The notes beneath the pieces are model-generated. The model was not told the DNA's origin. It searched no databases and was given only the letters and a program-made list of their open reading frames with translations. From an uncultured Solibacteraceae bacterium (GTDB lineage: Bacteria > Acidobacteriota > Vicinamibacteria > Vicinamibacterales > SCN-69-37), in the NCBI GenBank assembly GCA_964423815.1, contig CAYRGW010000014.1, forward strand, positions 505 to 64,504: a DNA stretch of 64,000 nucleotides, in the 5' to 3' direction. Shown piece by piece: positions 4,748 to 24,556 of the stretch; the stretch's first letter is position 1, and the number at the start of each line of letters is the position of its first letter. A program made the position numbers and the translations under genes.

Positions 4748-4755
4748 CTGTCTAA

Positions 4756-4810
4756 GACGTCGGGTGTCTTTTTTTGCTAACGCCTAGAGCGAAAAAAGAC
4801 ACCCGACGTC
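4756..4810. repeat. Palindromic intergenic repeat 'Z', copy 1 (19-bp perfect stem, 17-nt loop)
   Basis: GACGTCGGGTGTCTTTTTT (4756-4774) is the exact reverse complement of AAAAAAGACACCCGACGTC (4792-4810). It lies between convergent genes ending at 4747 and 4818. The same element occurs inverted at 48580-48632, and a half copy lies at 49643-49672. Confidence 0.8.
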
Positions 4811-4817
4811 GTTGTCG

Positions 4818-5270
4818 TTATGACTGTGGTTTGAAATACAGCACCATCGAGGCGCCGGCGACGACCATGATGAATCCGAGATACAGCAGCGGATTCGGTG
4901 TCTCTTTCGGCGGGTGCAGGTACATGGTGAACAGCACGTTCACGACCGGGGCACCGCCGAACACAAGCGGCATCACGTAGGTCGGAATGCCGCCCGCGCG
5001 GAAGGCATAGATGATGAACACGGCGCCAATCGCGCCGAGCATCCCGGCCGCCGTGGCACCAAACGCCCCATCCATCGACCAGCCCTTCGTCAGTTGTCCC
5101 TGTGACGCCAGGACCACCATCGGCACAACCACGCCGACGAGGAAATAGGCGACCCCCACGCACAACAGCGCCTTGAACGGGCTGCCGAGTTTGACCTGAC
5201 CCTGGTGAAGCGCAGGACCGTACAGCCCCCACGACAACGCCGCCCCGAGCGCAAAAATCACCCAATGCAT
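4818..5270 (-). CDS. Small polytopic membrane protein (half-size DMT/EamA-like), function unknown
   Basis: 150 aa and almost entirely hydrophobic, with about 4-5 predicted TM segments by eye. Last gene of the cco-act array, 19 nt after the preceding gene. Confidence 0.6.
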   Translation of the reverse strand: MHWVIFALGAALSWGLYGPALHQGQVKLGSPFKALLCVGVAYFLVGVVVPMVVLASQGQLTKGWSMDGAFGATAAGMLGAIGAVFIIYAFRAGGIPTYVMPLVFGGAPVVNVLFTMYLHPPKETPNPLLYLGFIMVVAGASMVLYFKPQS

Positions 5271-5289
5271 GGAGACATACTAACGCGCT

Positions 5290-5952
5290 CTACCGTAACC
5301 CGCGCAGGAGGAACATCACCCCCATCGCCAGTACAAAGACCTGCGACAGCCGGTTGAGCGCGGGGCGGCGCTTCACGATGAGTTCGTCGGCGAACGACAA
5401 CATCAACAACGCCGGCACGGTGCCCGCGCCGAAGAGGGCCAGGGCGAGTGCGCCATCCACCAGCCCGCCCTGCGCGATGGCACCCACAACCGCCGTGTAG
5501 ACAAGCCCGCAGGGCAACAGGCCGAGCGCCAGACCGAGCGTCAAAGGATGCGCGGGCATACGTGCGCTGAGTCGAGAGACGACACGTGACAACCAGCTCG
5601 TGCTCAAGATGCGGGGACCGACGTCGGTCAACACCGCCAGACTCCAGATCACCAGCATCACGCCGGCCAGAATCAGGGCCGCCTGTTGCAGTCCCACCAG
5701 GTCACCCACGGCGCCCACGGCCAAGCCCATCGCGCCGGCCGCAGTTCCCAGGAGCATGTACGTGGTGAGTCGTCCGACGTGATACCAGGTCTGCGCGAGC
5801 CACGACGGTCGTGTGTCGCCGGCGTACCGCCGAGACACCATGATCACAAACGGCGAACACATCCCCACACAATGCCCGAGACCACCGAGCAGGCCGAGTG
5901 TCAGAAAACCCAGCAGGTCGAGGTGTGACGCGACCGCGTGTGTGTGCTCCAT
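5290..5952 (-). CDS. DsbD_2 / TauE-SafE-like membrane protein (HCxxMC and LPCG motifs)
   Basis: 220 aa and polytopic. Motifs GGLGHCVGMCSPF and GLLPCGLVY match the family usually annotated as sulfite exporter TauE/SafE or UreH-like (PF13386, from recollection). Confidence 0.7.
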   Translation of the reverse strand: MEHTHAVASHLDLLGFLTLGLLGGLGHCVGMCSPFVIMVSRRYAGDTRPSWLAQTWYHVGRLTTYMLLGTAAGAMGLAVGAVGDLVGLQQAALILAGVMLVIWSLAVLTDVGPRILSTSWLSRVVSRLSARMPAHPLTLGLALGLLPCGLVYTAVVGAIAQGGLVDGALALALFGAGTVPALLMLSFADELIVKRRPALNRLSQVFVLAMGVMFLLRGLR

Positions 5953-5964
5953 CTCAACATCGGG

Positions 5965-7179
5965 TCAGGACTGATACGCGAGGCACTCGGCCAGCGATGG
6001 ATCCTTGAGCGGCACCGCATCGTGTCGCGCCAGCGCCCAGCCAAACACGAGCGTGAAGAGACCAAGGAATCCCAGCGTTACCAGAAACTCAACGACGGGC
6101 AACTGCGCATGTGCGGGTTCGCCGCCATGCCCCAGCGCCGGTGCCACCATCAGGTAGAGCTCCCAGAATTGCGCGACCAGGATGACCATCGCCATCGACA
6201 CCAGGCGACCGGGCGTCCGTTTGGCTGTGCGCGGCAGCAACACCAGGAACGGCACCACAAACTTCAATACCGGCAACACCAGCATGTAGGGCAACCAGCC
6301 GTTGGCGGTCCGCTTCAGGAAATACACCGTCTCTTCCGGCAGGTTCGCGTACCAAATCAACATGAACTGGCAGAAGTAGATGTAGGCCCAGAAACCCGTC
6401 CACGCAAACAGCATCTTGCCCAGCGAGTGCAGGTGATTGTCATTGAGGAATCCACGCAGGGTTCCGGACATCACCAGCAGCCCGGCGACGATGGCGACAA
6501 AGGCCGTGCCGCTCTGCATGACGTCGGTAAACACGAGCACGGCCATCATCGTCGAGAACCAATGCGGCTCGAGCGACATCAGGAAGTAGAAACTGATCAC
6601 GCTGAGCGTCAGCGCGAAGATGACGATGAAGAGGGCAGAGAGTGCGCGCCGCTGTCGGCTCAACGCGACGCCGCCGTCTCGGTCCTGCCGGTAGGAACTG
6701 CCCACGAGTAACTGACCAAACACCGCCCACAACAGCAGGCTGCCTCCAACCAGTGCCCAGAACATGCCCATGTTGAGGAACGACGCCTTGTGCAGCAGGA
6801 GCGGATCGGTCGCGACCACATCCGCATGGGTCCACTCATAGAGTGAATGTGCCCCCAGGCCGAGTCCCAGTGCGAGCAGACCTCCGGGGATCAGCCAGGC
6901 GGTCATCGCTTCAGGAATTCGCCGCATCGTGACCGACCACGTGGCGCCGGAGAGATTCAGGATCGCGAGCCACGCGGCGCCAAACACGCCGAGGCCCAGC
7001 GTAAAGAACACTCCGATGAGATACGCGCTCCATGCGTGGGTGGCGTCGCCGGTGCTGAACGTCCACGCGAGCGTCGCCGCGCCAACCAGTGCGGCCACGG
7101 CGGCCAGACCACGCACCGAGGCGGGCAGACTGAGCCGCGGAGGCGGCGGCGCAAGTTCAACTGTGTGCGGGTGACTCAT
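5965..7179 (-). CDS. actF: Alternative Complex III subunit ActF (NrfD-like polytopic membrane subunit)
   Basis: Polytopic membrane protein in the sixth position of the act cluster. I trimmed the track ORF (5965-7320, R-rich N-terminus) to ATG 7179 (MSHPHTVELAPP...), 7 nt after the actE stop. Confidence 0.8.
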   Translation of the reverse strand: MSHPHTVELAPPPPRLSLPASVRGLAAVAALVGAATLAWTFSTGDATHAWSAYLIGVFFTLGLGVFGAAWLAILNLSGATWSVTMRRIPEAMTAWLIPGGLLALGLGLGAHSLYEWTHADVVATDPLLLHKASFLNMGMFWALVGGSLLLWAVFGQLLVGSSYRQDRDGGVALSRQRRALSALFIVIFALTLSVISFYFLMSLEPHWFSTMMAVLVFTDVMQSGTAFVAIVAGLLVMSGTLRGFLNDNHLHSLGKMLFAWTGFWAYIYFCQFMLIWYANLPEETVYFLKRTANGWLPYMLVLPVLKFVVPFLVLLPRTAKRTPGRLVSMAMVILVAQFWELYLMVAPALGHGGEPAHAQLPVVEFLVTLGFLGLFTLVFGWALARHDAVPLKDPSLAECLAYQS

Positions 7180-7186
7180 GATGTCC

Positions 7187-7852
7187 TCACTTGATCGGGG
7201 CCGTCGGCGGTGTCGCCGAGGCCGGCGTTGTCGCAGGTGTCGCCGGCGGCGGCGCAACGGGTTCAACCGACTGCATCTGCCTGATGTAGTGCACGACAGA
7301 CCACGCGTCCCGCGTATCAATCTGCCGGGCGTGGCTGGGCATCGAGCCCTGCCCGCGCATCGGACGATGGAACAACTCGCCGTCCGGCCAGTCGCGCACC
7401 TTCTGCGTCATCAGGCTGGGTGGCTTCGGGAAAAGGGCGGTCACGTGTCCATCCCCGGCGCCCCTGGGGCCATGGCAGGTGATGCAGACGTTCTCGTAGA
7501 TGAACTTCCCGTGCGCCACCACCTCGGGCGTCGACGGAAGGGGATTGACCAACTCGGCGCCCGCCAGCGCCGCCTCGTTCTGCGCGTAGGGGTAGGGCGT
7601 GTCGCCCACGGCAACGGTGCCCGCGGGTGGTTCAAGCATGCCGGTGACACGACCGCTGCCAAAGGGGTCGTTGCGCTGTGGCTTGATCTTCGGCTGGTCA
7701 ATCATGTCCAGCCGGTTGCCTTCCCGGTGCGGCGAGCGTCCGGCCGGCAGACCGACGTCACAGCCGGTCAGCAGCACGGTCAGCGCTCCGAGTACAAGAG
7801 CGGGGATGCGGTTATTCACGGACGCCTCCAGAAGCATCAACAATGCGCACAT
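7187..7852 (-). CDS. actE: Alternative Complex III subunit ActE (monoheme cytochrome c lipoprotein)
   Basis: Single CxxCH (CITCHG). Lipobox LLTGC. The start is uncertain; an alternative GTG at 7819 would overlap the actD stop by only 8 nt. Confidence 0.8.
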   Translation of the reverse strand: MCALLMLLEASVNNRIPALVLGALTVLLTGCDVGLPAGRSPHREGNRLDMIDQPKIKPQRNDPFGSGRVTGMLEPPAGTVAVGDTPYPYAQNEAALAGAELVNPLPSTPEVVAHGKFIYENVCITCHGPRGAGDGHVTALFPKPPSLMTQKVRDWPDGELFHRPMRGQGSMPSHARQIDTRDAWSVVHYIRQMQSVEPVAPPPATPATTPASATPPTAPIK

Positions 7853-8366
7853 GGTCCGCGCCGAGCGACGTCACAAATCCGCGCGCATCGTCGCTGGTCC
7901 ACTTGGGGTCGGTGGACGCGATCCAGATCACGAAGCGATCCACGGTCGCGCCGGTCGGAAGCAGCGGCGGCGGGGGCTTGAGCGCCCCTGTGCGCTTGCC
8001 GGCGACCACGGCGATAATCGCGGACCCGATGGCGGCCCAGAAGACCATCGCTTCAAACGTGATGGGGATAAACGCCGGCCACGACGCGTGTGGTTTGCCG
8101 CCGAAGTTCATCGGCCAGTCGTACACCATCACGTAGTTCTGCAGTCCCTGGGCGAACGCGATGCCACCAAACGCCAGCGCGAGTGTCGCCCACGGGATCC
8201 ACGATCGCTTCAGGCCCATGGCATCGTCCATGCCGTGGACGGGGAAGGGGGTCAACATGTCGAAGTGGGTCCAGCCGGCGTCGCGCACCCTGGCCGCCGC
8301 CGCCAGCGCGTCGTCCGGTTCGTAGAAGTCGCCGAGAATCCCGGCGGTTGTATCAGGTGTCATCAC
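7812..8366 (-). CDS. actD: Alternative Complex III subunit ActD (DUF3341)
   Basis: 184 aa with a soluble N-terminal part followed by two TM helices. Lies between the NrfD-like and monoheme subunits, 1 nt after the actC stop. Confidence 0.8.
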   Translation of the reverse strand: MMTPDTTAGILGDFYEPDDALAAAARVRDAGWTHFDMLTPFPVHGMDDAMGLKRSWIPWATLALAFGGIAFAQGLQNYVMVYDWPMNFGGKPHASWPAFIPITFEAMVFWAAIGSAIIAVVAGKRTGALKPPPPLLPTGATVDRFVIWIASTDPKWTSDDARGFVTSLGADHVRIVDASGGVRE

Positions 8367-8367
8367 G

Positions 8368-9831
8368 TCAGACCTCCTGCGCGCGTGCCCGCGCCACTTT
8401 TGGATCCATCACGCCCTTGACCTCTGACATTGCGACCACAGGCAGGAATCGGACGAACAACAGGAACAAGGTAAAGAAGAGTCCGAAGGACCCCACAAGG
8501 ATGGCGTAGTCCCAGAACGTGAGCGCATACATGCCCCACGATGACGGCAGGAAGTCGCGGTGCAGCGAGGTCACGACGATGACAAACCGCTCGAACCACA
8601 TCCCGACGTTGACCAGGATCGACACGATGAAGAGCACGAGTGTGTTGCGCCGCATCGCCTTCGACCAGAAGATCTGCGGGACGATCGCGTTGCAGGTGAA
8701 CATGATGGCGTAGGCCCACCAGTAGGGCCCAAACGCGCGGTTCTTGAAGACAAAACCTTCCCACTCGCTGCCCGAATACCACGCCATGAAGAACTCGGTC
8801 GCGTAGGCGAAGCCGACGAGCATGCCGGTGAGCATCAGGATTTTCGCCATCTGCTCCATGTGGTTGATCGTGACGTAGTTCTTCAGGCCGAAGTAGCCGC
8901 GCATGAAGGTCATCAGTGTGATGACCATCGCGAAGCCGGAGAAGATGGCGCCAATGACGAAGTAGGGCGGGAAGATCGTCGTATGCCAGCCCGGCATCAC
9001 CGACGTCGCGAAGTCAAACGACACGATGGTGTGGACGGAGAAGACCAGGGGCGTCGCCAGCGCGGCCAGAATCAGGTACGCCGATTCGTAGTGACGCCAC
9101 GCGCGGTTGGAGCCGGTCCAGCCCAGGCTCAACGCGTTGTAGAGCTTCTTGCGCCAGGGGTGGGTCGCGCGGTCACGCACCGTGGCCAGATCCGGCAGCA
9201 GGCCGAGATACCAGAACGTGAGTGACACGAGACCGTAGGTGGAGATGGCGAAGATGTCCCACGCCAGCGGCGAGTTGAAGTTGACCCACAGCGGGCCGCG
9301 GGCGTTGGGATACGGCACCAGCCAGTAGGCAAACCACGCACGACCGAGGTGGATGACCGGGAAGATGCCGGCGCAGGCGACGGCAAAGAGGGTCATCGCT
9401 TCAGCCGTCCGGTTGATGCCCGTGCGCCACTGCTGGCGGAAGAGGAACAACACGGCCGAAATCAATGTGCCGGCGTGGCCGATGCCGATCCAGAACACGA
9501 AGTTGACGATGAATGAGCCCCAGCCGACAGGCTGATTAACGCCGAGGATGCCCATCCCGCCGTAGAACAACGTGATCAGCGAAAAGATGAGCACCGACAA
9601 GCAGGCCAACGCCACGCTGAACGCGATCCACCAGCGTCTGGTCGGAAACTGCTCCGCGTGCATGCAGATGTCACCGTCAACCTCCGCCCACTTCTTGGCG
9701 CCGGTCACCAGTGGTTCCGGCACCTCGATGTCACCCCCGTAGGGGCCCGCGCCCACCAGCACGATCGGGTGGCCCGTGAGCTGGCTGTCGTCCATTACCG
9801 TCGCGTACGGACTTTGCTCATGCCTGGTCAT
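8368..9831 (-). CDS. actC: Alternative Complex III subunit ActC (NrfD/PsrC-like quinol-interacting membrane subunit)
   Basis: 487 aa with about 10 TM segments and NrfD-like composition. Overlaps the actB stop by 14 nt. Confidence 0.85.
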
Positions 9832-12800
9832 TACGCACCTTCGTCAGATAAGAGACCGAGGGCTTCACGCCCAGCGAGTCGAGCAATTTCATTGCGCGGG
9901 GATGGTCGGCTGCCGCGGCCACCTGTGAGTCCGGCAGATTGATGTCGCCGAAGGTGATGGCGCGTGTCGAACACGCTTCCATACACGCGGTCACCACGGT
10001 GCCGTCGGGCAGATGGTCCTTGGGCTGACCATTCCGTGTGGCTTCCGCCGTGGCCGCACGCACACGTTGCACGCAGAAGGAACATTTCTCCATGACACCG
10101 CGACTGCGCACGGTGACCTCGGGGTTGTTCTTCATCTGCATCGGTTCGCGGGCATTCAGGTCGGAATTGGTCGCAATCTGCGGCACCAGCCAGCGGAAGA
10201 AGCCGCTTTCCTGCTTCTTGCTCAGCTCCCAGTAGTTGAAGCGGCGGACCTTGAACGGGCAGTTGTTCGCGCAGTACCGCGTGCCCACGCAGCGGTTGTA
10301 GATCTGCTGGTTGAGTCCATCCTCACTGTGCATGGTCGCGACAAACGGGCAAACCGTTTCGCACGGCGCGTTTTCACAGTGCTGGCACAACATCGGTTCA
10401 AACAGCGCCTTGGGATCCTCGGTGACCTCGAGTGGGCCATCCCAGACCTCGGCGTCCCAGCCGCCCTCTTTTGCCGGCGCGTCGTAGTAACGATCAATGC
10501 GGAGCCACGACATCTCGCGACCGGCGATCATCCCGGTGCGCCCGACGACGGGGATGTTGTTTTCGGCCTGACAGCCGATCACACACTTGGCGCAGCCGGT
10601 GCACTTGGTGAGGTCGATGGCCATGGCCCATCGGGCCTTCGGGTATTCATGTTCCGGCCAGGCCGACGGACCGCCAGGGATCTGTTCGGTGCCTGCCTTG
10701 GGATTCTGCTGATACTCCGACAACGTGGTCGTTGGAACCAGAGGCCGACGAGCGCGGTCGATGACGTCTGAGCCCTGGGCAAGTGCGAGTTCCTCGTGCC
10801 CACCCGTCTTGCGGATGGTGACCGGCAGGCCGGCGGCCATCAGGCGGCCATTCACCAGTGGACGCATCGGGAAGGCGTTGGCGCCCACGCCGTTGCCGAT
10901 CAGGCCGCACGCGGTGCGGCCGTACCCGAGCGGCAGCGCAATCTGATCGTGATGCATCCCGGCGTGTCGATAGGCGGGTGCCACGATCTTCGCGTGGCCG
11001 GCGTCCACCTCGATCAGGTCGCCGTTGGTCAGCCCCATGTCGTCAAAACGCCGCGGCGCGATCGACAACGCCCCGCCCCAGGTGAGGCGGGTGATGGGAT
11101 TCGGCAATTCGTGCAACCAGCCGTTGTTGGCCGAACGTCCGTCGCCGAGCGCCAGGTCGGGATACAACTGGAGCTCGAGTGGGGACGTTTCCGTGATTCT
11201 CGCGAGGCGCGACACGGACATCAGGGCGCCGGCGCGGAATGTGCGCGGCGCTGCGGCCTCCGCCGGTCCCTGCCATCCACCCGTACGAACGACGTCACTC
11301 CACGCGTTTTCAAACGTTGTGGTGGCCGGGTCGAGTCCGAGACGTGTGGCCCAGGCGGCGCGCAGGTAGTGAAACGCGGGACTCGGACTCGGCGCGCGTT
11401 GTGCCGTCGCTGCCGCAGGCGGCGCGGCGGGCGGCAACGCGGCCGCGATGGCGGCACGGGCCGCCGGGTCACCAAACGCGGCGGCCCAGTCGACCAGCAC
11501 GTCGAGCAGACCACGCGTGTCGTGCAGGGCCTGGATGACCGGCTGCTGCACGGCGACGTATCCGCCGGGCATCGTCTCGTCGTTCCAGCACTCAAACGGG
11601 TGGCTGGCCGGCGCCAGCACATCGGCCAGCAGCGTGGTTTCGTCGAGCCTGTCGTTGAGCGAGACCACATACGGGACCTTGGTGATCGCGTCAGCGATGC
11701 CGAGTGCCGCAGGCGCGTCATACGCGGGGTTGGGTCCCGCCACGATAAGCACCTGCACGTCCCCGGCCTTCATCTCCGTCGTCAGGGTTTGCAGCGCCGC
11801 GGTGTAATCGGAGGAGCGAGCGACCGCGATCTCGTCGAACAGCCCGGCGTCAAAGGCCCCGAGGGTGACGTTGAGCGCCAGCGTCACCAGTTCAATCGCG
11901 GGTCCCTGGGCGGACGTGCTTGCGGCGCCGCCGGCGACCACGATCACGCGGCGTGTACCCTTCGCCAGTTCGTCCACCAGTGAGCGCAGGACGGCCGGAT
12001 CCAGACCGGCGGCCTGCGCCACCGTGGTGAGCTCAAACGGTGCGAGTGCCTCGGTCACCGACGCGTCGCCGGCGAGTGGACCCAGTCCGCGCACCACGAT
12101 GAGTTCGCGCGCCATCGCGGCGGCGACTGCGGCGAGATGGGAGTCGCGGGTGCGGATACGCTGATCGGCGTTGGCGCCGGTGAGCGTCAGGCGTCCTTCC
12201 AGTTGCACGAACCGGCTCATGCGCTGATCGCCGGTGCCGTCGGGATTACGTCGCGCGGCGAACAAGGGCTCAAGGCCATCGGATGGGCGGTCGAGGAACT
12301 CGGCGCCCAGGCCCAGAATCAGATCCGCCTTGTCGAGCCGTGGTCGTGCCACACGTGGTGCGCCAAACGCCTCGTTCCACGCCCACGTGGTCGTCGTGTC
12401 ATCGATCGGCGCCCACTGCACATGGCGCAGTCCGGTTTGTGCGCCAAGCGCGGCGATCGCCGATGTCATCGCGGGGCTGGTGACGGGGCCTGTCAGCAGG
12501 ACGGCCCGCGGCCCGGCGGCTTTCAGACGAGTGACCACCTCGGCGCTGATCGCGTTCCAGTTCATGGCCACCGTCGGACCCGCGTTGCGTCGCACGGAGA
12601 CCGGGCCTCGCGCGCGGTCCGGGTCATACAAATCCATCAGCGCCGCCTGGTGCCGCACCGTCAGGCCGCGCCCGGTCACTTCGTTGGCGCGGGGAGTGAC
12701 AAGAATCGGCCGACCTTCACGCGTCCGCACCAGGACGGGTGTGCCGTCGATGACCGTGTGGAAAAAGCGTACGTGCCCGAGTCCACCGACCAACTCCGAC

Positions 12801-12955
12801 GGCATGTCGTGAAACGGCACGGTGGCCTCGGGTGGCACCTGACATCCGGCGCTGGCCAGCGCGCCTGCGGCGGCCACAGTGCTGGTCAGTCGCAGAAATT
12901 CGCGCCGGTCGATGCCGGTGCCTTCCTGCGTGCTGACGGTATCGTGCTCGCTCAT
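9818..12955 (-). CDS. actB: Alternative Complex III subunit ActB (Tat-exported molybdopterin-oxidoreductase-like domain fused to a 4Fe-4S ferredoxin domain)
   Basis: Twin-arginine signal ([24 protein letters not shown]). The C-terminal third is rich in Cys clusters ([48 protein letters not shown]). Trimmed from track ORF 9818-13036 to ATG 12955 (MSEHDTV...), 11 nt after the actA stop. Confidence 0.9.
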
Positions 12956-12966
12956 ACGACTCTCCC

Positions 12967-13587
12967 CTACCTGTGGCACGTGATGCAGTCGGTGGACGCC
13001 TTCATTTCCGGCTTCCGGTGGCAGTCCACACACCACTGCATGTTGAAGTTGTTCTGCACGGACACCACGTCCATCTTCGCGACGTCGCCGTGGCAGTTCT
13101 GGCAGACGACCATCGGCTTGCCGTCCGCATCCACGAGCGGCAACTTGGGACGACCCTGTTCATCCTTGGCATTGAGATGTGCGGAGTGGTCGTAGTACAC
13201 AAAGTCCGGCAGGTCGTGCACCTTCACCCATGGAATGGGTTCGCCGCGATCCCAGTACTCCTTCATCTTGAGCACCCACTCGCGGTTGAGTCCGACCGTC
13301 GAGTGGCAGTTCATGCACACGGCCGTCGAGGGGATCGTCGAGTGCCGGCCCTTGTAGGGCATCGTGTGGCAATACACACACGGAATCGCAAACCCGCCGA
13401 CGTTGACGCGTTCGCCCTTTTCGTTCACCTGCCAGTCGGGTTCACCCGCCATACGTTTGTGGGAGAACGGAATCGGCTGCCGTGGTTCGTATCCCTTGCG
13501 GGCGTTGCTGAGGGCGTACGCCAGCGTGCCCGTGAAGGCGATCACGATCACCAGTGTCACCACGCGTATCACTGTGGGCCTCTTCAT
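12967..13587 (-). CDS. actA: Alternative Complex III subunit ActA (pentaheme cytochrome c, N-terminal membrane anchor)
   Basis: Five CxxCH motifs: CVYCH, CMNCH, CQNCH, CVDCH, CITCH. N-terminal TM. Its ATG overlaps the ccoS stop (ATGA at 13584-13587). Confidence 0.9.
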   Translation of the reverse strand: MKRPTVIRVVTLVIVIAFTGTLAYALSNARKGYEPRQPIPFSHKRMAGEPDWQVNEKGERVNVGGFAIPCVYCHTMPYKGRHSTIPSTAVCMNCHSTVGLNREWVLKMKEYWDRGEPIPWVKVHDLPDFVYYDHSAHLNAKDEQGRPKLPLVDADGKPMVVCQNCHGDVAKMDVVSVQNNFNMQWCVDCHRKPEMKASTDCITCHR

Positions 13588-13754
13588 TCGTCTACTCTCC
13601 GTGTCGAAGTCGGTTCTTCGTCGTCAAACAAAATGCGGATGGCGGGTGTTTCGAGATCGTCGAATTGCCCGGTGCGTGCAGCCCACACAAAAAACCCCAC
13701 CGCGATCGCGGCGATCAGCAGCGCCAGTGGCAGGAGCACAAAGATGGCTTCCAT
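13584..13754 (-). CDS. ccoS: cbb3 oxidase maturation protein CcoS
   Basis: 56 aa: MEAIFVLLPLALLIAAIAVGFFVWAARTGQFDDLETPAIRILFDDE. One TM followed by the SGQFDDL...P..RILFDD signature typical of CcoS/FixS. Trimmed from 13584-13796 to ATG 13754, 1 nt after the ccoI stop. Confidence 0.85.
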   Translation of the reverse strand: MEAIFVLLPLALLIAAIAVGFFVWAARTGQFDDLETPAIRILFDDEEPTSTRRVDE

Positions 13755-13755
13755 G

Positions 13756-16266
13756 TCAGGCTCCCGCTCCCGTCCGTGCCGAGCGCGCGCGCGCAAACGT
13801 GCGGGTCATCGCCGACGACAACACCACGGTCAGTGACGAAATCGGCATCAACACCGCTGCGAGTAATGGGCTCACCAACCCGGCGACCGCCAGAGACGAG
13901 GCCGCGATGTTGTAGAACAGCGAGAAGGTGATGTTGCGGCGGATGACACCACGCAGACGTCGCGAGCCATCAAGCACCTCAAGCAGTGGCGCGACGCCCT
14001 CGCGTGTGAGGACCACGTCGGCCGCCATCATCGACGCGCCCGTGCCCCCATGGACGGCGACACCCACATCGGCCAGCGCCAGCGCGGCGGCATCGTTGAC
14101 GCCGTCGCCCACCATCACCACGGTGCCGGTGCGATCGATGCGCGACACCAGCCCGGACACGATGTCGCGTTTGGCCTCCGGCGAAAGTCCGCCCTGTGCG
14201 TCCTCGGGCGCGAGTCCAAGCCGTGCGCCCAGCTCAGAGACGATGGCCGGGTGGTCGCCGGAGAGAATCCTGACGTGGATGCCGCGCGCGCGCAGCGACG
14301 CCAGCGTGGCCGCTGCATCCGGACGCACTGCGTCGCCAATGCCCGCCACACCCGCGACCTGGCCATCAATCGAAACAAACACTGGGCTCAGGCCATCGGC
14401 CACCATCGCGTCGGCGGCTCCAGCCACACCCAGTGAAAGCGCGTGACCAGGTGCAGACGTAAATGTGCGGGTGCCCACACGGACGTCGTGGGTGTCCACG
14501 CGGCCAGCGATACCCTGGCCGGGTGACTCCACGACGTTGTGTACCGTGCGAACAATTTGCAGCGCACGTGCGGCCGACGCTTGAAAGGCGCGCGCGACCG
14601 CATGGGAGGACTCCGCTTCGAGCGCGCGGGCCAGTTCAAACACCGACGCGTCACCATGCCAACGCGCAACCGTGGCACGGCCTTCGGTCAGTGTGCCGGT
14701 CTTGTCGAGCAGGACCGTCTCCACGTGGCGCAGCCGCTCAAAGGCGTCCGGATTCTTGACGAAGATGCCGGCGCGCGCGGCACGAGTCAGGGCCACGGAC
14801 ATGGCGAGCGGCACGGCCAGCCCGAGCGCGCAGGGACACGAAACCACGAGAAGCGCGACCACACGTTGCATCGCGACCCAGGAACCCTGTGTGGCCCAGG
14901 TCACCGCAGCAGTGACAGCGGCCACGACCAGCAGCACGTGCACAAATCGTCGCGCCAGCCGGTCGGTCGTCTGGACCAGGGCCGCCTTCTGCGAGAGCGC
15001 GTCCTGCACGATGGCCAGCAACGCGCCGACGCGGGTGTGTTCGCCGGCGGCCTGCACACGAAGGATGAGGCGCGCGCCCAGATTGGTGGCCCCCGCCGTG
15101 ACCGCATCACCTTCAGCGACCTCCAGCGGCGTGGCCTCGCCGGTGAGGACGGCGTTGTTGAGCGACGACCGTCCTGTCAGCACGACGCCATCGACCGGGA
15201 TCAATTCCCCAGACCGCACCTCGACGCGGTCGCCGGCTACCAGCGCCGCCAGCGGCACCTCGACCACCGGCGCGTCACTGTCGTCACCGTCGAGCCGCCG
15301 CGCAAATTCAAGAAACGCGACGTCGCGCAGACTGTTGGCCCGTTCCACTGCAGCGCGGTGGGCGCCGCGCTGCAGGATGCGGGCGCCAAGGAGCGCGGCC
15401 ACCAGCATCGCGAGTGAATCAAACCAGAGGGGGCCGTGGCCCACGACCGTGTTCCAGGCGCTGGCCCCGGCAGCGACGGCGAGCGCGACGGCAATGGGCA
15501 GGTCGATGTGCACCATCCCCATGCGCAGGCCGGAATACGCCGTCTGAAAAAATGGCCGCGCTGAGAACACCAGCACCGGCACGGAGATGACCAGCGAGAA
15601 CCATCGGAAAAACGTCTGGTAGGTCGAGGCCATGCCCGAGTACTCGCCCGCGTACAGCGCGCCGGACACAAACATGAGGTTCATCGCACAGGCCGCCGCA
15701 ACGCCGAGTCGCGCGACCATCTTTCGGTCTTCCGTGCGCGGCACTTCCGGGCCACGGCCCAGTCGCTGCAGGTGTGGTGTGTATCCGAGACGATCAAGCG
15801 CCCGACTGATGGTGGAGAGATGTGTCTGCGCCGGTCGCCACGTCACGTCGGCGACGCCCGTTGCATAGTTCAGGCGCACCTCATCGACGCCGGCCAGCAC
15901 CGACGGCAACTTCTCGACCATCCACACACAGGCGGCACACTGCACACCTTCGAGGTACAGCCGCGTGCGCAGCCGCTCAGGCCCGACATCCGTGGTTGCC
16001 TCCACCTGCACCCGCGCATCGTCAAAGTCCTCGAAGCTGCGGCCGGTGACTTTGGCGGGCTCCAGCGACATCTCCTGCCGGTTGACCAGCCGGTAATACT
16101 GGTCAAAACCCCACTCGCGCACGAGGGTGTACACCTGACGGCAGCCGTTGCAGCAGAACTGATGCGCGTCTTCCTGGCGCACGAGTGCCCCGGGGACCGG
16201 CAAACCGCAATGCGCACAGGCGACAGGCGCCGGGCGTGCGGGTCGCTGGTCGCGCGCGAGGGTCAT
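13756..16266 (-). CDS. ccoI: Copper-translocating P1B-type ATPase CcoI/FixI
   Basis: Motifs DKTGTLT, CPC (VVSCPCALG), GDGVNDAAAL, and N-terminal Cys motifs CAHCG...CCNGC. Start trimmed to ATG 16266 (MTLARDQ...), forming an ATGA overlap with the ccoH stop. Confidence 0.9.
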   Translation of the reverse strand: MTLARDQRPARPAPVACAHCGLPVPGALVRQEDAHQFCCNGCRQVYTLVREWGFDQYYRLVNRQEMSLEPAKVTGRSFEDFDDARVQVEATTDVGPERLRTRLYLEGVQCAACVWMVEKLPSVLAGVDEVRLNYATGVADVTWRPAQTHLSTISRALDRLGYTPHLQRLGRGPEVPRTEDRKMVARLGVAAACAMNLMFVSGALYAGEYSGMASTYQTFFRWFSLVISVPVLVFSARPFFQTAYSGLRMGMVHIDLPIAVALAVAAGASAWNTVVGHGPLWFDSLAMLVAALLGARILQRGAHRAAVERANSLRDVAFLEFARRLDGDDSDAPVVEVPLAALVAGDRVEVRSGELIPVDGVVLTGRSSLNNAVLTGEATPLEVAEGDAVTAGATNLGARLILRVQAAGEHTRVGALLAIVQDALSQKAALVQTTDRLARRFVHVLLVVAAVTAAVTWATQGSWVAMQRVVALLVVSCPCALGLAVPLAMSVALTRAARAGIFVKNPDAFERLRHVETVLLDKTGTLTEGRATVARWHGDASVFELARALEAESSHAVARAFQASAARALQIVRTVHNVVESPGQGIAGRVDTHDVRVGTRTFTSAPGHALSLGVAGAADAMVADGLSPVFVSIDGQVAGVAGIGDAVRPDAAATLASLRARGIHVRILSGDHPAIVSELGARLGLAPEDAQGGLSPEAKRDIVSGLVSRIDRTGTVVMVGDGVNDAAALALADVGVAVHGGTGASMMAADVVLTREGVAPLLEVLDGSRRLRGVIRRNITFSLFYNIAASSLAVAGLVSPLLAAVLMPISSLTVVLSSAMTRTFARARSARTGAGA

Positions 16267-16769
16267 TGCGTCACCTGCATCCTGGCGGCGTGCACAAATC
16301 GGAGCGACTGCTGGGTGGTGTCGAGACGCATCTCCCACTCGCCCGACTCGTCCATCTGTACCAACGTGCGGTACCGTCCGAGTTGGTTGGGGATTGCGGT
16401 CAATGTGCCCGTCTGATTGAGCCGTGTGTCGGATGGACGAATGGCGAACAAGCGACCTGTGAGATTCGCCACGGGCGCGCCCGTGCGGTCGGCCACCGTG
16501 ACGTCCACGGGCCGCGGCATGCCGCGCATGTGCGGCACGTCAGTCGGCAGTTCGTATCGCACCGTCCAGCCGAGTTGCTGGCTCGCCTGCTGTTCGGCTT
16601 CCGTGACGTCCCAGGCCAGTGCCGCCTCGAAATATCCCTGCATCGGTCGTGGTGCGTCGGGGCGCGTGGCCACCCACACGATCACACCACTTGCGACGAT
16701 CGACATGGACAGCAGCCCACCAACAAAGATCGGCCACCGATACTCGGAGAGCAGCCGCGCGAACTTCAT
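16263..16769 (-). CDS. ccoH: FixH/CcoH family cbb3 assembly protein
   Basis: 168 aa with an N-terminal TM (WPIFVGGLLSMSIVASGVIVWVA) and a periplasmic domain. Lies between ccoG and ccoI, with 4-nt overlaps on both sides. Confidence 0.75.
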   Translation of the reverse strand: MKFARLLSEYRWPIFVGGLLSMSIVASGVIVWVATRPDAPRPMQGYFEAALAWDVTEAEQQASQQLGWTVRYELPTDVPHMRGMPRPVDVTVADRTGAPVANLTGRLFAIRPSDTRLNQTGTLTAIPNQLGRYRTLVQMDESGEWEMRLDTTQQSLRFVHAARMQVTQ

Positions 16770-18193
16770 CGCCGTTCTCCACGTTCAGAAGGTCCAAGCA
16801 GCAGGAACTCAATTTCCTTGCGGAAACCGCGGTCGGACGTGACGACATACCGCACCGTGGCCTGCCCGTCGTCAAAGATGTCGGCCGGCACGGTCGTGAC
16901 CGCATTCACGGTGACCACCCGGTCAGCGTCGACCACGATGGGTGATTCGCTGAGGACAAACGAACCCCCGGCAACACCCTCAAGGACGACGTCGAAACGT
17001 TGGGTCTGATCCAACTGGCTGGTGAAACGGATGCGTTGCTGATTGGCGACCTCACCCGTCGGAAGGATCCGATAGGTTTCACGTCCACCCCTGCGGATCT
17101 CCACCAGGACATCCGCGCGCGTGAAGACGAGCGCGCCGAGTGTGCCCCAGGCGACGAGGAGGAGGGCCAGATACGCGAGGTTGCGCGGACGCCAGATCCG
17201 CCGCAGTCCACCCACCTGTTCGCGTTCCGACGTGAACTTGATCAGTCCCGTCGGCTGCCCGAGTTTGCGCATGACGTCGTCACACGCGTCCACACACTGT
17301 GCTGTGCCGATGCACTCGACCTGCAGCCCGCGCCGGATGTCCGTACCGGTCGGGCACACACGCACACACGCGCCGCAGTCGATACACGCGCCGGAGATCT
17401 CAACGCCCATCCGAAGTTTCGGCGCGAGGCGTGGTTCGCCGCGTTCCAGGTCGTAGGCCACGAGCAGCGTGTCCTTGTCGGCCAGCACGTTCTGCAGCCG
17501 GCCGTAGGGGCACGCGATCGTGCACATCTGATCGCGGAACCAGCCGAAGTCAAACAGAATCAGCCCGGTGACGCCCGCCATGGTGATGATCGCGCTTGTC
17601 CACGCCGCCGGGGCGGTCATCAACCCGCGAAGCAGCGGCGACCAACCGGTGAAGTACGACACAAACGTCGTCGCCATCAACACCGCAAGCACCGTAAACA
17701 AAAACCACTTGAGCGCCTTGACGCCGAACTTGTGCAGGCCCCACGGCTCCTTGTTCAGCCGCAGTTGCCCGGTGGCGCCGCCTTCGACCCACTGCTCGAT
17801 GGGCCTGAAGAGAAACTCCATGTAGACCGTCTGAGGGCAGCCGAAGCCGCACCAGACACGGCCAAACGTGGAGCCGACAAAAAACACGGTGACGACCACG
17901 CCAAAACCAAAAGCCGCGAGCAGCAGGTTGTCGGTCGGATGAAAGGTGCCGCCAAAGATGTGGAACTTGCGCGTGGCGAGGTCGAGCAGAATGGCGGGCT
18001 CACCCCCGATGGTCAGGTGGGGGAGGCCAAAAAACAACACCACGAGCGCAAACGCAATGTTGCGTCGAATCCTCCAATACCGCCCCTTGCTCACCACCGG
18101 ATGGATGTACCGGCGATGACCGTCGGCCGAGATGCTGAACAGCAACTCGTCGTCGGGTGCGGTGTCGAAGATGCGCTCGTGCTCGGTGCTCAT
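16766..18193 (-). CDS. ccoG: Cytochrome c oxidase accessory protein CcoG (polyferredoxin-like membrane protein)
   Basis: TM segments plus CPYGRLQ and CIDCGACVRVCPTG 4Fe-4S motifs. Trimmed to ATG 18193 (MSTEHERIFD...), 1 nt after the ccoP stop. Confidence 0.9.
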   Translation of the reverse strand: MSTEHERIFDTAPDDELLFSISADGHRRYIHPVVSKGRYWRIRRNIAFALVVLFFGLPHLTIGGEPAILLDLATRKFHIFGGTFHPTDNLLLAAFGFGVVVTVFFVGSTFGRVWCGFGCPQTVYMEFLFRPIEQWVEGGATGQLRLNKEPWGLHKFGVKALKWFLFTVLAVLMATTFVSYFTGWSPLLRGLMTAPAAWTSAIITMAGVTGLILFDFGWFRDQMCTIACPYGRLQNVLADKDTLLVAYDLERGEPRLAPKLRMGVEISGACIDCGACVRVCPTGTDIRRGLQVECIGTAQCVDACDDVMRKLGQPTGLIKFTSEREQVGGLRRIWRPRNLAYLALLLVAWGTLGALVFTRADVLVEIRRGGRETYRILPTGEVANQQRIRFTSQLDQTQRFDVVLEGVAGGSFVLSESPIVVDADRVVTVNAVTTVPADIFDDGQATVRYVVTSDRGFRKEIEFLLLGPSERGERR

Positions 18194-18194
18194 C

Positions 18195-18782
18195 TCAACG
18201 TCCTTGAATCGGCTCCGCCACAAAAACTGTGCCCTCGGGCGGGCGACCGTTGGCAGGACGGGTGCCCTGCAGGCTTCGCACGTACGAAACAAGCGCGCTC
18301 AGTTCATCGGGCGGAAGGGCGCGGCCCCATGGCGGCATCCCCTTGGCCGGCGACCCTTTGGCGATCGTCTGGAAGATCTGTTCGACCGATCCACCGAGCA
18401 GCCAGTGTTCGTCGGTCAGGTTCGGTCCGATCAGGCCCTGCGCCTGCGCCCCGTGGCACGCTGCACACGACCTAGAAAAACGCGATTCGCCCATGCCGAC
18501 GATGGCGGCGTTGGATGCACCTGCCAGCAACGACGTTGGGGACGGCGGCACGATGGGATTGGCGTCAAAATACGCTTGCACCTCGAGGGTCGCCGCCTCG
18601 TTCTGGGCGCGGAACTCCGCTTCCAGTGATCCTTCGCCGAAGCTCAGTGCGTAGAAGATGAGATACCCGGCGGCGAAGATGAGTGATCCCCACCAGATCG
18701 CCATGAGCCAGCCCGGCATCGGGTTGTCGTATTCCTTGATGCCGTCGAGTTCGTGCAGGACTTTGTCTTCGTATTTGGCCAT
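18195..18782 (-). CDS. ccoP: cbb3 oxidase subunit CcoP, monoheme form
   Basis: N-terminal HELDGIKEYDNPMPGWLMAIWW matches the FixP_N signature. One TM and a single CxxCH (CAACHG). Confidence 0.85.
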   Translation of the reverse strand: MAKYEDKVLHELDGIKEYDNPMPGWLMAIWWGSLIFAAGYLIFYALSFGEGSLEAEFRAQNEAATLEVQAYFDANPIVPPSPTSLLAGASNAAIVGMGESRFSRSCAACHGAQAQGLIGPNLTDEHWLLGGSVEQIFQTIAKGSPAKGMPPWGRALPPDELSALVSYVRSLQGTRPANGRPPEGTVFVAEPIQGR

Positions 18783-18789
18783 GGTCGCC

Positions 18790-18960
18790 TCACACCTTCT
18801 CGTCGTCTTCGTCGAGCGGCATCCGCGCGCGGGCGTCGAGGTCGGCGGCGGATGAGCGGAAGGCCCGCACGGCCACCACCACGTAGACCGCGATAAAAAA
18901 CAGCATCGAGCCCACAGCCCACATGCTGGCGCCCGATCCGGCGGTAAGTTCCTGGAGCAT
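18790..18960 (-). CDS. ccoQ: CcoQ/FixQ-like small membrane subunit
   Basis: 56 aa with one TM (MWAVGSMLFFIAVYVVVAV) and an acidic tail. Its ATG shares one base with the ccoNO stop (TAATG at 18958-18962). Trimmed from 18790-19041. Confidence 0.65.
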   Translation of the reverse strand: MLQELTAGSGASMWAVGSMLFFIAVYVVVAVRAFRSSAADLDARARMPLDEDDEKV

Positions 18961-21203
18961 TACCGTTGCCCTCCCGATGTCTGTGGCGCAGTGATGAGCG
19001 GCGTGGCGGAGAACGGTGCCTGCGTCTGGACCCGTTTCCACTTGATGTCGGTGCCGAGGCGTTGCAGGTACGCGGTGAGCGCAAGGATTTCCTTGTCGGC
19101 CAGGCCCTGGGGACCCTGCTGCGCTTCCACTTCAGCGGCAATCGCGCCCGCCTGTGCGTGCATGGTGGCGACCGCGTTTTCGATCTCGCCGTCGGTGTAG
19201 GGCGCGCCGAGGGTGCGCAGGACCGACATCTTGCTCTGGATCAAGCTTGTGTCAAACGCATCCCGGAGCAGATGTGGATACCGCGGCATGATCGATCCCG
19301 GCGTTGTGGAATCGGGCCGGTCCATGTGACGCACGTGCCACAGCGACGGGTATTTGCCGCCGACTCTGTGCAGGTCCGGTCCCGTGCGTTTCGAGCCCCA
19401 CTGGAACGGGCGGTCGTAGACGTATTCGCCGGCCTTCGAATATTCGCCGTAACGTTCGGTCTCGTAGCGGAAGGGGCGAACCAGCTGCGAGTGGCAGTTG
19501 TAACAACCTTCGCGCACGTAGATGTCGCGACCCACAACCTCGAGCGGTGTGTACGGCTTGACGCTTGCGATCTCCTTCACGTTCGACTTGTTGAAAAACA
19601 TCGGCAACGCTTCAACCAGTGACCCGACCGCCAGGGCCAGGACGGTCAACACCGTGAACGTCACCGTGCGGCGTTCGAGCACACGGTGGAAGCCGTGACG
19701 GGTCGCATGCTGGAAACGGTAGAGCGCGTAGTCGTAGGTGTTGGCCGGCGTCACCGCACCAGGCGCGGCATCGTCATTCACACGAGGCGGTACCTGGATC
19801 TCTGGTTCGACGGCGAAGTCTGCCGGCGCAGTCTTGATGGTCTTGTAGATGTTCCAGCACATCATCAGGAGGCCGGTGAAGAACAGGAGCCCGCCGCCCA
19901 GTCGCACCCAGTACATCGGCACGATGCGGACGACGGTTTCGATGAAGTCGGGGTAGGTCAGCCGGCCGTCGGGTTCAAACGCGCGCCACATCGCCCACTG
20001 GGTGATGCCGGCCACCCACATGGACACCTGGTAGGCGATCAGGCCGATGGTGGACGTCCAGAAGTGTGCCGTCGCCAGCCGGACGGAGTAGAGATTGGTC
20101 TTCCAGAGTCGCGGGATCGCCCAGTAGAGAATCGCGAAGGAGAGGAACGCGTTCCAGCCGAGGGCACCGGCGTGTACGTGACCGATGGTCCAGTCGGTGA
20201 AGTGGGAGACGGCGTTGACCGACTTGATCGACATCATCGGCCCTTCGAAGGTCGACATGCCGTAGTAGGTGATGGCCACCACCATGAATTTGAGGATCGG
20301 GTCCTCGCGCAGTTTGTGCCAGGCGCCGCGCAGGGTGAAGAAGCCGTTCACCATGCCGCCCCATGACGGCATCCACAGGACGAGCGAGAACAACATGCCG
20401 AGGGTGGACGCCCACTCGGGGATGGCGGAGTAGTGCAGGTGGTGCGGACCCGCCCAGATGTACACAAAGACCAGCGACCAGAAGTGCATGATCGAGAGCC
20501 GGTAGCTGAAGACCGGACGGTCGGCGGCTTTGGGCAGGTAGTAATACATCAGGCCCAGGAAGGGCGTGGTCAGGAAGAACGCGACGGCGTTGTGGCCGTA
20601 CCACCACTGCATCAGCGCGTCTTTGACGCCGGAGTAGGCGGAGTAGCTGCCCAGCCACGAATACGGCAGCACCATGCTGTTGCCGATGTGCAGGATGGCG
20701 ACCGCGACGATCGTCGCGATGTAGAACCAGATGGCGACGTAGAGATGTTGTTCGCGGCGAATGGCGATGGTGCCGAAGAAGTTGATGCCAAACGTCACCC
20801 AGAGCACCGCGATGACGATGTCGAGGATCCAGGGAAGTTCGGCGTATTCCTTGCCCTGGGTGTTGCCCGTGACCAGCGCGAGGGCGGCGGCGACGATCAG
20901 GAGTTGCCAGCCCCAGAAGTGGAAGGCGGACAACTTGTCGCTGAAGAGGCGTGTCTTCAGCAGGCGCTGCATCGAATGGTAGGTGCCGGCAAAGATGATG
21001 TTGCCGCAGAAGGCGAAGATGACTGCGTTGGTGTGGAGCGGACGCAGCCGACCGAACGTCAGATATGGCGCGAAGTTCAGGTCGGGAATAAAGAGCATCG
21101 CGGCGATGAGCACGCCCACGAGCATGCCGACCACGGCCCAGACCACCGCCGCGAGGAAAAAGAGTCGCGGCGTCTTGTCGTCGTAACGGACTGTCTCGCC
21201 CAT
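18960..21203 (-). CDS. ccoNO: Fused cbb3 oxidase subunits CcoN-CcoO
   Basis: 747 aa. The N-terminal two-thirds is a polytopic heme-copper oxidase (HTNAVIF, WGWQ, HFWSLVFVYIWAGPHHLHY, HVHAGALGW). The C-terminal third carries a TM plus monoheme CYNCHSQLVRPF, typical of CcoO. Trimmed to ATG 21203 (MGETVRYDDK...). Confidence 0.9.
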   Translation of the reverse strand: MGETVRYDDKTPRLFFLAAVVWAVVGMLVGVLIAAMLFIPDLNFAPYLTFGRLRPLHTNAVIFAFCGNIIFAGTYHSMQRLLKTRLFSDKLSAFHFWGWQLLIVAAALALVTGNTQGKEYAELPWILDIVIAVLWVTFGINFFGTIAIRREQHLYVAIWFYIATIVAVAILHIGNSMVLPYSWLGSYSAYSGVKDALMQWWYGHNAVAFFLTTPFLGLMYYYLPKAADRPVFSYRLSIMHFWSLVFVYIWAGPHHLHYSAIPEWASTLGMLFSLVLWMPSWGGMVNGFFTLRGAWHKLREDPILKFMVVAITYYGMSTFEGPMMSIKSVNAVSHFTDWTIGHVHAGALGWNAFLSFAILYWAIPRLWKTNLYSVRLATAHFWTSTIGLIAYQVSMWVAGITQWAMWRAFEPDGRLTYPDFIETVVRIVPMYWVRLGGGLLFFTGLLMMCWNIYKTIKTAPADFAVEPEIQVPPRVNDDAAPGAVTPANTYDYALYRFQHATRHGFHRVLERRTVTFTVLTVLALAVGSLVEALPMFFNKSNVKEIASVKPYTPLEVVGRDIYVREGCYNCHSQLVRPFRYETERYGEYSKAGEYVYDRPFQWGSKRTGPDLHRVGGKYPSLWHVRHMDRPDSTTPGSIMPRYPHLLRDAFDTSLIQSKMSVLRTLGAPYTDGEIENAVATMHAQAGAIAAEVEAQQGPQGLADKEILALTAYLQRLGTDIKWKRVQTQAPFSATPLITAPQTSGGQR

Positions 21204-21379
21204 TGCCTCACCTTGTCTGCAAGCGGCGCCACGCCGGATACGTTCCAGGGCCACAGGCACACGAGAGGCAACGTCCCGACGGCACTAAGCGGCGCACTCC
21301 TGCGGCGCACGCTTACGCTCGTCGGGGCCGTACATAGCAATCGCCATTCCACCGACGCGGCTATTGATTTTGTTGAGTG

Positions 21380-21400
21380 TTTTCGCACTTTTTGCGAAAA
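21380..21400. promoter_or_regulatory. 8-bp perfect inverted repeat TTTTCGCA-N5-TGCGAAAA between the receptor-gene stop and ccoNO
   Basis: Read directly from the sequence. It is the only AT-rich patch in the 263-bp gap upstream of the 16-kb cco-act array. It could be an operator, or a weak terminator for the upstream gene. Confidence 0.2.
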
Positions 21401-24535: not shown

Positions 24536-24556
24536 GTGACAAGTATAGTAGCCACC

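Follow-up and report, generated by a model that had tools for sequence, protein, structure and literature searches.

A cbb3 oxidase gene array with an Alternative Complex III in Vicinamibacterales, and its counterparts in Myxococcota

The genes for Alternative Complex III (ACIII), which is a quinol:cytochrome c oxidoreductase, are normally followed by those of an A-type oxidase (PMC5928083, PMC3362086, PMC3534657, PMC8407424). In verrucomicrobial methanotrophs they directly adjoin cbb3 (C-type) oxidase genes (Schmitz 2021, PMC8498564, citing Refojo 2010), as they do in Methylacidiphilum kamchatkense (Kruse 2019, PMC6688271). A review states that ACIII is found with cbb3 ‘only’ in Verrucomicrobia, in methanotrophs and Opitutaceae (PMC8498564), and a functional pair or supercomplex has been proposed there, though never tested (PMC8498564, PMC6688271). 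Here we describe an array on the minus strand, from 21203 to 4818, of a 64,000-nucleotide stretch of contig CAYRGW010000014.1 (called the window, at its full length), in which genes for a cbb3 oxidase, its maturation factors and a complete ACIII run together. The host is a soil bacterium of the Acidobacteriota, order Vicinamibacterales, and its genome consists of 189 contigs and is 100% complete. An earlier reading of the window from its letters, referred to below as the sequence-only reading, had stated that ACIII usually stands beside caa3/aa3-type oxidases, and the literature bears this out for A-type oxidases (PMC8407424, PMC5928083).

Linkage of ACIII genes to cbb3 genes is in itself already known. 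The sequence-only reading had called the arrangement unusual, and this needs qualification: adjacency of ACIII and cbb3 genes has been published for Verrucomicrobia, while our literature search on ACIII with cbb3, which took in Vicinamibacter and myxococcal bacteria but not the Refojo reviews of 2010 and 2012, brought up no account of this architecture. As in the verrucomicrobial clusters, the ACIII genes directly adjoin C-type oxidase genes. The differences are that the window array occurs in Acidobacteriota and Myxococcota, has cco first, has ccoN and ccoO fused, and carries the full ccoGHIS set between oxidase and ACIII. With the ACIII-caa3/aa3 superoperons (Rhodothermus marinus, 6F0K; Flavobacterium johnsoniae, 6BTM; Acidobacteriaceae ACIII-A2 caa3, PMC8407424) it shares a six-subunit ACIII encoded beside a presumed terminal oxidase. 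It differs in that the oxidase is C-type and lies upstream rather than downstream, and in that the ACIII belongs to a distinct subclade with insertions in ActA and has 28–32% identity to its canonical paralogue (58% for ActC).

The cco half has the content and order of the proteobacterial ccoNOQP and ccoGHIS clusters (N, O, Q, P, then G, H, I, S). It differs from these in the fused ccoN-ccoO, in a monoheme CcoP, and in the six act genes and the DsbD_2 gene that are appended; no FNR-type box is seen in the 263-bp gap upstream, which has a sigma-54-type site instead. CcoNO also matches the oxidase chains of PDB entries 6XKW and 8SMR, which we take to be the bc1-cbb3 assemblies of Rhodobacter capsulatus and Pseudomonas aeruginosa. 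The bc1-cbb3 supercomplex likewise couples a quinol:cytochrome c oxidoreductase to cbb3, with homologous CcoN and CcoO, but its complex III is unrelated (bc1 as against ACIII), its genes do not form one operon, and the CcoP of the window is monoheme. What is new here is the oxidase-first architecture, the embedded maturation genes, the fused CcoNO, the extension to two more phyla, the evidence for module-level co-divergence and transfer between phyla, and, for a single subclade, a possible sigma-54 promoter. The published ‘only in Verrucomicrobia’ statement for C-type oxidases with ACIII is incomplete. We know of no ACIII-cbb3 pair that has been studied biochemically or structurally; the pair would be a fourth combination of complex III and heme-copper oxidase, after bc1-aa3, bc1-cbb3 and ACIII-aa3/caa3.

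The array consists of 15 open reading frames (ORFs), defined by ORF listing, inspection of start codons and Pfam searches, which run unbroken on the minus strand in the order ccoNO(fused)-Q-P-G-H-I-S, actABCDEF, DsbD_2 gene, EamA-like gene:

18960–21203, minus strand: ccoNO, cbb3 catalytic subunit with N and monoheme O fused, 747 aa; COX1 1e-114 and FixO 6e-92; matches 3MK7 chains A and B
18790–18960, minus strand: ccoQ-like small membrane protein, 56 aa; weak FixQ match, 23 bits against a cut-off of 29
18195–18782, minus strand: ccoP, monoheme, 195 aa, one CxxCH; FixP_N and Cytochrome_CBB3
16766–18193, minus strand: ccoG; Pfam Fer4_18 and FixG_C
16263–16769, minus strand: ccoH; Pfam FixH
13756–16266, minus strand: ccoI, P1B-type copper ATPase; E1-E2_ATPase, HMA, ATPase-cat_bd
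13584–13754, minus strand: ccoS; FixS; stop overlaps the actA start (ATGA)
12967–13587, minus strand: actA, ACIII pentaheme cytochrome c, 5 CxxCH; matches ACIII chain A
9818–12955, minus strand: actB, molybdopterin-like and Fe-S subunit, twin-arginine (Tat) signal RREFLR; Pfam Fer4, Molydop_binding; matches ACIII chain B
8368–9831, minus strand: actC, NrfD-type quinol-binding membrane subunit; Pfam NrfD
7812–8363, minus strand: actD; Pfam ActD (PF11821), 167 bits
7187–7819, minus strand: actE, monoheme cytochrome c lipoprotein, LTGC lipobox; one CxxCH, cytochrome c Pfam match
5965–7179, minus strand: actF, second NrfD-like membrane subunit; no Pfam match, 6F0K chain F at 3e-60
5290–5952, minus strand: DsbD_2-family membrane protein; Pfam match
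4818–5270, minus strand: EamA-like half-size membrane protein, 150 aa; Pfam EamA 27 bits, just below cut-off

The sequence-only reading had counted eighteen genes, which is too many: there are 15 ORFs, and listing the fused ccoN and ccoO separately raises the number of gene names to 16. Its picture of a minus-strand array holding a complete ACIII, a cbb3 oxidase and maturation genes agrees with the Pfam and PDB-chain matches, and so does its description of the packing with the junction list. The distances between genes, in gene order, are −1, 7, 1, −4, −4, 1, −4, 11, −14, 4, −8, 7, 12, and 19 nt, so that no gap within the array exceeds 19 nt. There are five stop/start overlaps; the TAATG at 18960 and the ATGA at 16766, 16263, and 13584, all named in that reading, are present. 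The start of actE was taken as the GTG at 7819 rather than the ATG at 7852, and the projected overlap of −8 nt is the median in relatives. By tblastn, 11 of the 19 related loci have kept the ccoQ-like gene. The EamA-like gene, 19 nt 3′ of the DsbD_2 gene, had no tblastn match in any related locus examined. The array order was found again in more than 25 independent loci, and hence is not due to chance.

ActA matches chain A of 8K9E, 6LOD, 6F0K, and 6BTM with E values of 4e-25 to 2e-21, and ActB matches chain B of the four solved ACIIIs at 2e-130 to 8e-116; the match of ActF noted above is to the R. marinus ACIII structure. The set comprises a pentaheme ActA, an ActB fusion with Tat signal, NrfD-like ActC and ActF, ActD, and a lipid-anchored monoheme ActE, and by these features the product of actABCDEF is recognisably a bona fide ACIII. 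ActC is 77–95% identical across the linked loci, meaning those in which cco and act genes adjoin.

For the oxidase, alignment to Pseudomonas stutzeri 3MK7_A showed that H60, H207, Y251, H257, H258, H345, and H347 of CcoN are all conserved. These comprise the histidine ligands of heme b, of heme b3, and of CuB, together with the cross-link tyrosine of helix 7, and because they are intact the cbb3 oxidase of the array is predicted, on sequence grounds, to be catalytically competent. The other hallmarks of a cbb3 oxidase are present as well, namely a fused FixO (matching 3MK7_B), CcoP, and the ccoG, ccoH, ccoI, and ccoS maturation genes. CcoP has one heme, as against two in the proteobacterial enzymes. 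This was considered as an adaptation to ACIII and is ruled out, since CcoP has a single CxxCH in 45 of 45 cbb3 loci from both phyla, linked or unlinked.

We consider it probable (roughly 0.65) that the array forms one self-contained cassette, inherited and expressed together, for a branch from menaquinol to O2 that leads through ACIII to cbb3. The ACIII would oxidise quinol, and electrons would pass via the hemes of ActA and ActE to the oxidase of the same array. CcoG, CcoH, CcoI, and CcoS, encoded between the two complexes, would mature the oxidase, and the DsbD_2 gene would be a conserved accessory gene of the cbb3 cluster. The dedicated microaerobic ACIII-cbb3 chain that the sequence-only reading predicted, with the regulation by O2 that this would entail, is a hypothesis.

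The distribution of the array in Acidobacteriota was scored by fetching the DNA around each full-length FixO match (E 1e-60 or better) and mapping it with the window proteins. Full-length FixO is encoded by 8 genomes in a set of 41 relatives, and four of these (G000, G016, G026, and G032) have a second, low-scoring ActD 11.2–11.7 kb off on the same strand. In a sample of 401 Acidobacteriota genomes, ActD was found in 282 and full-length FixO in 27. The order ccoNO-Q-P-G-H-I-S-actABCDEF-DsbD2 is complete at six of the 27 FixO loci (G000, G026, G032, G171, G281, and G309; locus L047 is the same DNA as G171), and is compatible but cut by a contig end in G301 and G349. G016, from the set of relatives, also has a complete array. 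The sequence-only reading had suggested such a survey of ACIII neighbourhoods, and would have abandoned its claim if the linkage were already common and well described in the clade; the array is indeed recurrent in Vicinamibacterales (8 of the 27 cbb3 loci of the phylum sample), which goes part of the way.

The remaining acidobacterial cbb3 loci fall into two types, one ordered ccoI-S-NO-P-G-DsbD2 and the other ccoNO-P-G-(H)-DsbD2-ccoI-S. In these loci CcoNO is only 54–62% identical and act genes are lacking. A DsbD_2 homologue closes or sits inside every type of acidobacterial cco cluster, with or without act. Its presence in all three types implies that the act genes are embedded in a cco cluster, and not merely adjacent to one; judged by this distribution, the DsbD_2 gene is a gene of the cbb3 cluster rather than of ACIII. 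The array is patchy within the window's own genus. In the same-genus locus L011, no homologue of the outer membrane protein (OMP) or Met-zincin genes that flank the array in the window was found in the 3.4 kb upstream and 0.6 kb downstream that were sampled.

Some weaker FixO matches in Acidobacteriota (L154–L161) were set aside as divergent C-family clusters, with CcoN about 35% identical and no act genes. They have one or two cytochrome c genes before CcoN, and DsbD_2-like (6 of 8), ccoG, and ccoI genes after it; it appears that cbb3 clusters of Acidobacteriota are generally accompanied by a DsbD_2-family gene.

A scan across phyla was made by ActA alignment, using one genome per species. 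Among the matches listed there are at least 12 loci with 41% ActA identity or more, and 10 of the 12 have cco genes directly upstream of actA. Seven of these ten are Acidobacteriota/Vicinamibacterales metagenome-assembled genomes (MAGs), and the remaining three bear the labels Myxococcales, Myxococcota, and Polyangiaceae. Those carriers for which a name was obtained are all MAGs. Of the two loci that complete the 12, one starts inside actA and is uninformative, and in one (L052, a MAG labelled Proteobacteria) the act genes occur by themselves. A cco array adjoining act is absent from each of the other 68 loci among the matches listed; L062 has an isolated ccoG-like match. Wherever loci of this ActA subclade have enough upstream DNA, ccoNO to ccoS lie directly upstream, with the exception of L052.

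In the sample of 301 Myxococcota genomes that holds the Polyangiaceae genome, FixO was found in 174. Window-type ActA (235 bits or more, the rest scoring 140 or less) was found in seven, including the centre genome G434, and is linked to cco in all seven. Unlinked myxococcal cco clusters are already ordered ccoNO-P-G-H-I-S, which native acidobacterial clusters are not. A DsbD_2 homologue was not detected after actF in the myxococcal arrays. In 19 linked loci the projected distance from ccoS to actA has a median of −1 nt and ranges from −4 to 59 nt, and the joint is as tight as those inside either complex.

The submitter's label and the search classification disagree for L102 (OY970344.1), which is labelled ‘uncultured Verrucomicrobiae bacterium’: a phylum-level search centred there gave the window's Acidobacteriota sample.

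Maximum-likelihood trees of CcoNO (61 rows) and ActB (40 rows) were made with quick IQ-TREE runs and midpoint-rooted, with support from the Shimodaira–Hasegawa-like approximate likelihood ratio test (SH-aLRT) only. In each tree all linked loci fall in one clan, and in both they branch in the order L053, L125, L051/L126, L050/L124, L123, and then a single shallow acidobacterial clade; L127 comes just before L123 in the ActB tree only. The acidobacterial linked copies are nested among the myxococcal ones, and their clade has SH-aLRT values of 92 and 98. The nearest unlinked ActB sequences are myxococcal, while the host's other ACIII falls in an acidobacterial-type clade. It is concluded that the cco-act array is a discrete, co-inherited module whose two halves have diverged together. 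The congruence of the trees suggests that an entire branch from quinol to O2 can be passed on, and can be transferred, as a single module, which bears on the spread of microaerobic capacity among soil bacteria. This second ACIII-cbb3 architecture is found in two groups that are abundant in soil, Vicinamibacterales and Myxococcota.

The history that we favour, provisionally, is transfer from Myxococcota to Vicinamibacterales. The cassette would have formed in Myxococcota when act genes were appended to a native cco cluster, in which the order ccoNO-P-G-H-I-S is native, and would then have evolved as a unit. It would have entered Vicinamibacterales once, horizontally and in one piece, beside the host's acidobacterial-type ACIII, with the DsbD_2 gene closing it there. 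It is quite improbable that the arrays instead represent ancient vertical inheritance with many losses, or transfer from Acidobacteriota to Myxococcota. Midpoint rooting leaves some room for this, as do errors in MAG phylum labels, for example at L102. Against it, both trees place the acidobacterial copies as a single shallow clade within a deep grade of myxococcal ones, the ActB tree has myxococcal ACIIIs as sisters, the NO-P-G-H-I-S order is shared with unlinked myxococcal clusters and not with native acidobacterial ones, and the array is patchy even within a genus.

The array is bounded at both ends by features that could start and stop its transcription:

21463–21487, minus strand: terminator-like hairpin with 11-bp stem, loop TTT, and T-rich tail; 5′ boundary, ends the upstream TonB-dependent OMP gene
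21416–21442, minus strand: tentative upstream activator site CATTTCCCTGACCGCGGAATTTTCCCC; sister loci have related AATTCCCC motifs
21380–21400, minus strand: perfect 8-bp inverted repeat TTTTCGCA-N5-TGCGAAAA, one half-site conserved in the same-genus locus
21337–21351, minus strand: sigma-54-type −24/−12 promoter candidate TGGAATGGCGATTGC, GG-N10-GC, 134–148 nt 5′ of the ccoNO ATG
4754–4813, minus strand: perfect 19-bp hairpin between convergent genes, likely terminator; 3′ boundary, −35.4 kcal/mol

The gap of 263 bp 5′ of ccoNO (21204–21466) separates the array from the TonB-dependent OMP gene (21467–24787, by Pfam). The sequence-only reading had regarded it as the only candidate promoter space, and it is the only intergenic space with a promoter-like site. 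The pattern TGGMAYN5TTGC has its sole match in the 64-kb window, counting both strands, at this site, where 0.49 would be expected over the whole window. The same motif lies 69–153 nt 5′ of ccoNO in six other loci (L011, L022, L024, L029, L044, and L049), in non-coding DNA that is otherwise only about 45% alignable, and it is absent 5′ of 12 of 12 unlinked cbb3 clusters. The seven motif-bearing loci make up exactly one well-supported subclade of the CcoNO tree. Since the motif is confined to this subclade, it is not intrinsic to the cassette; we infer that sigma-54 control of the array would be a trait of this lineage and not of the cassette as a whole. The host genome has rpoN and 15 genes for sigma-54 activators. 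No sigma-70-like site scored in 4000–22500, and neither an FNR/FixK box nor a sigma-70 promoter was found in the 263-bp gap. L011 has an inverted repeat ATTCCC-N8-GGGAAT at the relative place of the candidate activator site. The inverted repeat at 21380–21400 is ruled out as a conserved operator, only one half-site being present in the same-genus locus.

At the other end, the last stop codon of the array lies 5 nt before the 19-bp hairpin, which separates the array from the convergent Met-zincin gene. The only two terminator-like hairpins in intergenic DNA are these two, one at each end of the array. We suggest that transcription starts at the sigma-54-type promoter (21351–21337) and ends at the hairpin (4813–4754), with translational coupling across several joints, including ccoS/actA. 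A single transcription unit, as proposed in the sequence-only reading, remains the simplest reading of the DNA, given that the sole promoter-like site in intergenic DNA lies in the 263-bp gap, that hairpins occur only at the ends, and that ccoS and actA overlap by ATGA here and are a median of −1 nt apart in 19 related loci.

The alternative of two or more units, with cco and act transcribed from separate promoters (one within ccoI/ccoS) in response to different signals, is unlikely. Long operons often carry internal promoters, our promoter scans covered sigma-70 and one sigma-54 pattern only, and GC-rich coding DNA holds many hairpins as stable as those at the boundaries; hairpin energy was in fact uninformative as a test for internal terminators, because coding DNA at 64% GC folds equally stably. 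But the ccoS/actA overlap, with no more than 59 nt in 19 related loci, leaves no room for a terminator and a promoter, no internal intergenic joint has a terminator-like hairpin with a U-tract, and the window holds no second sigma-54-type match.

The 19-bp stem at 4754–4813 contains runs of T and of A. An earlier note placed an inverted copy of this hairpin near 48580–48632, which would suggest a repeated element of the repetitive extragenic palindromic (REP) kind; it was the first copy that was folded. A stable stem-loop at 21272–21331 (−34.9 kcal/mol), past the sigma-54-like site and ahead of the ccoNO start, would form part of the predicted 5′ leader.

The host genome offers other routes for electrons. 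A second ACIII, of canonical type, is found on contig C17 (58374–65848, equivalent to 4374–11847 of locus L007) and runs off the contig end. The ACIII of the window has 28–32% identity to it (58% for ActC) and the two lie in different ActB clades, which rules out a recent duplication of the host's own ACIII. The cbb3 oxidase of the array brings an ACIII of its own, which looks foreign to the host. The very start of contig C5 holds a SCO1-COX2(cytochrome c)-COX1-COX3 cluster (C5:1–4665, locus L008). The second ACIII and this caa3-type cluster may be neighbours in the actual genome, as an ACIII-caa3 superoperon of the classic kind. An open ORF, C5:1–504, was considered as the missing end of the second actF, joining C17 to C5, and was rejected, having no similarity to ActF. 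The two further oxidase loci hold a COX2-COX1 pair and a COX1 whose tail is FixO-like. In total the host has two ACIIIs and two cytochrome b genes; the heme-copper oxidase family is represented by four loci, three of them besides the array, and no cytochrome bd was found in its genome. The sequence-only reading had described ACIII as a replacement for bc1; this does not hold for the host genome, in which two cytochrome b genes are present. The host is also a caution against deducing electron routes from gene presence alone.

Several observations weigh against a dedicated cassette. Adjacency of ACIII to cbb3 genes is by itself no proof that one feeds the other. With two cytochrome b genes, a second ACIII, and three other heme-copper oxidase loci in the genome, a shared cytochrome c pool is possible. 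The number of hemes in CcoP does not co-vary with act linkage. The sigma-54-type motif is absent from the other acidobacterial arrays and from all the myxococcal ones, none of the 15 sigma-54 activator genes is on the contig of the array, and there may be internal promoters inside its coding DNA. The direction of transfer, in turn, rests on midpoint-rooted quick trees and the phylum labels of MAGs.

Another reading is that the linkage reflects co-transfer or co-regulation only, with the ACIII reducing a general periplasmic cytochrome c pool or another acceptor, or running in reverse, and not being a dedicated partner of the cbb3 oxidase. In its favour, the host genome has several options for quinol:cytochrome c oxidoreduction and for oxidases; F. 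johnsoniae can do without its ActE, which may have a different acceptor (PMC8552683); and reverse running has been suggested for iron oxidisers, where the roles of ACIII are considered speculative (PMC4643136). We nevertheless think this rather unlikely. The cco and act halves have stayed joined and co-diverged through two phyla, the act genes lie between ccoS and the DsbD_2 gene of the cco cluster, the linked ACIII provides the only ActD match in the three myxococcal carrier genomes tested, and the linked ActA has insertions specific to its clade.

There are two such insertions, and they occur in all cco-linked ACIIIs except the earliest-branching, L053; canonical ActA has neither. The first is of 16 residues just before heme 1 (about residues 47–62 of the window ActA), and is lacking in the sister unlinked ActA. 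The second is of 7–19 residues before heme 3 (about residues 140–157), and is absent in L129 and L131 and partly present in L052. They could form part of an obligate ACIII-cbb3 supercomplex, in which the ActA insertions and/or ActE dock on the monoheme CcoP and no soluble cytochrome c is needed. We put this forward tentatively, and regard it as rather unlikely. If true, the cassette would be a portable ‘plug-in’ high-affinity quinol oxidase, able to move between phyla as a single piece of DNA.

Two minor observations concern other loci. In the host genome (G000), outside the window, C4:8412–10165 (L010) holds a COX1-family gene (202 bits) and, after it in the same region, part of a FixO-like domain (120 bits, profile positions 19–146). 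A partial FixO match of 110–130 bits, in open frames of about 400–920 aa, is present in most genomes of the genus, and the COX1 plus partial FixO gene at L010 may encode an enzyme resembling nitric oxide reductase (NOR) or a divergent C-family enzyme. In the array copy of L042 (CAVUTP010000003.1), ccoNO, ccoI, and actB are each in several in-frame pieces, which looks like frameshifts from long-read assembly rather than decay.

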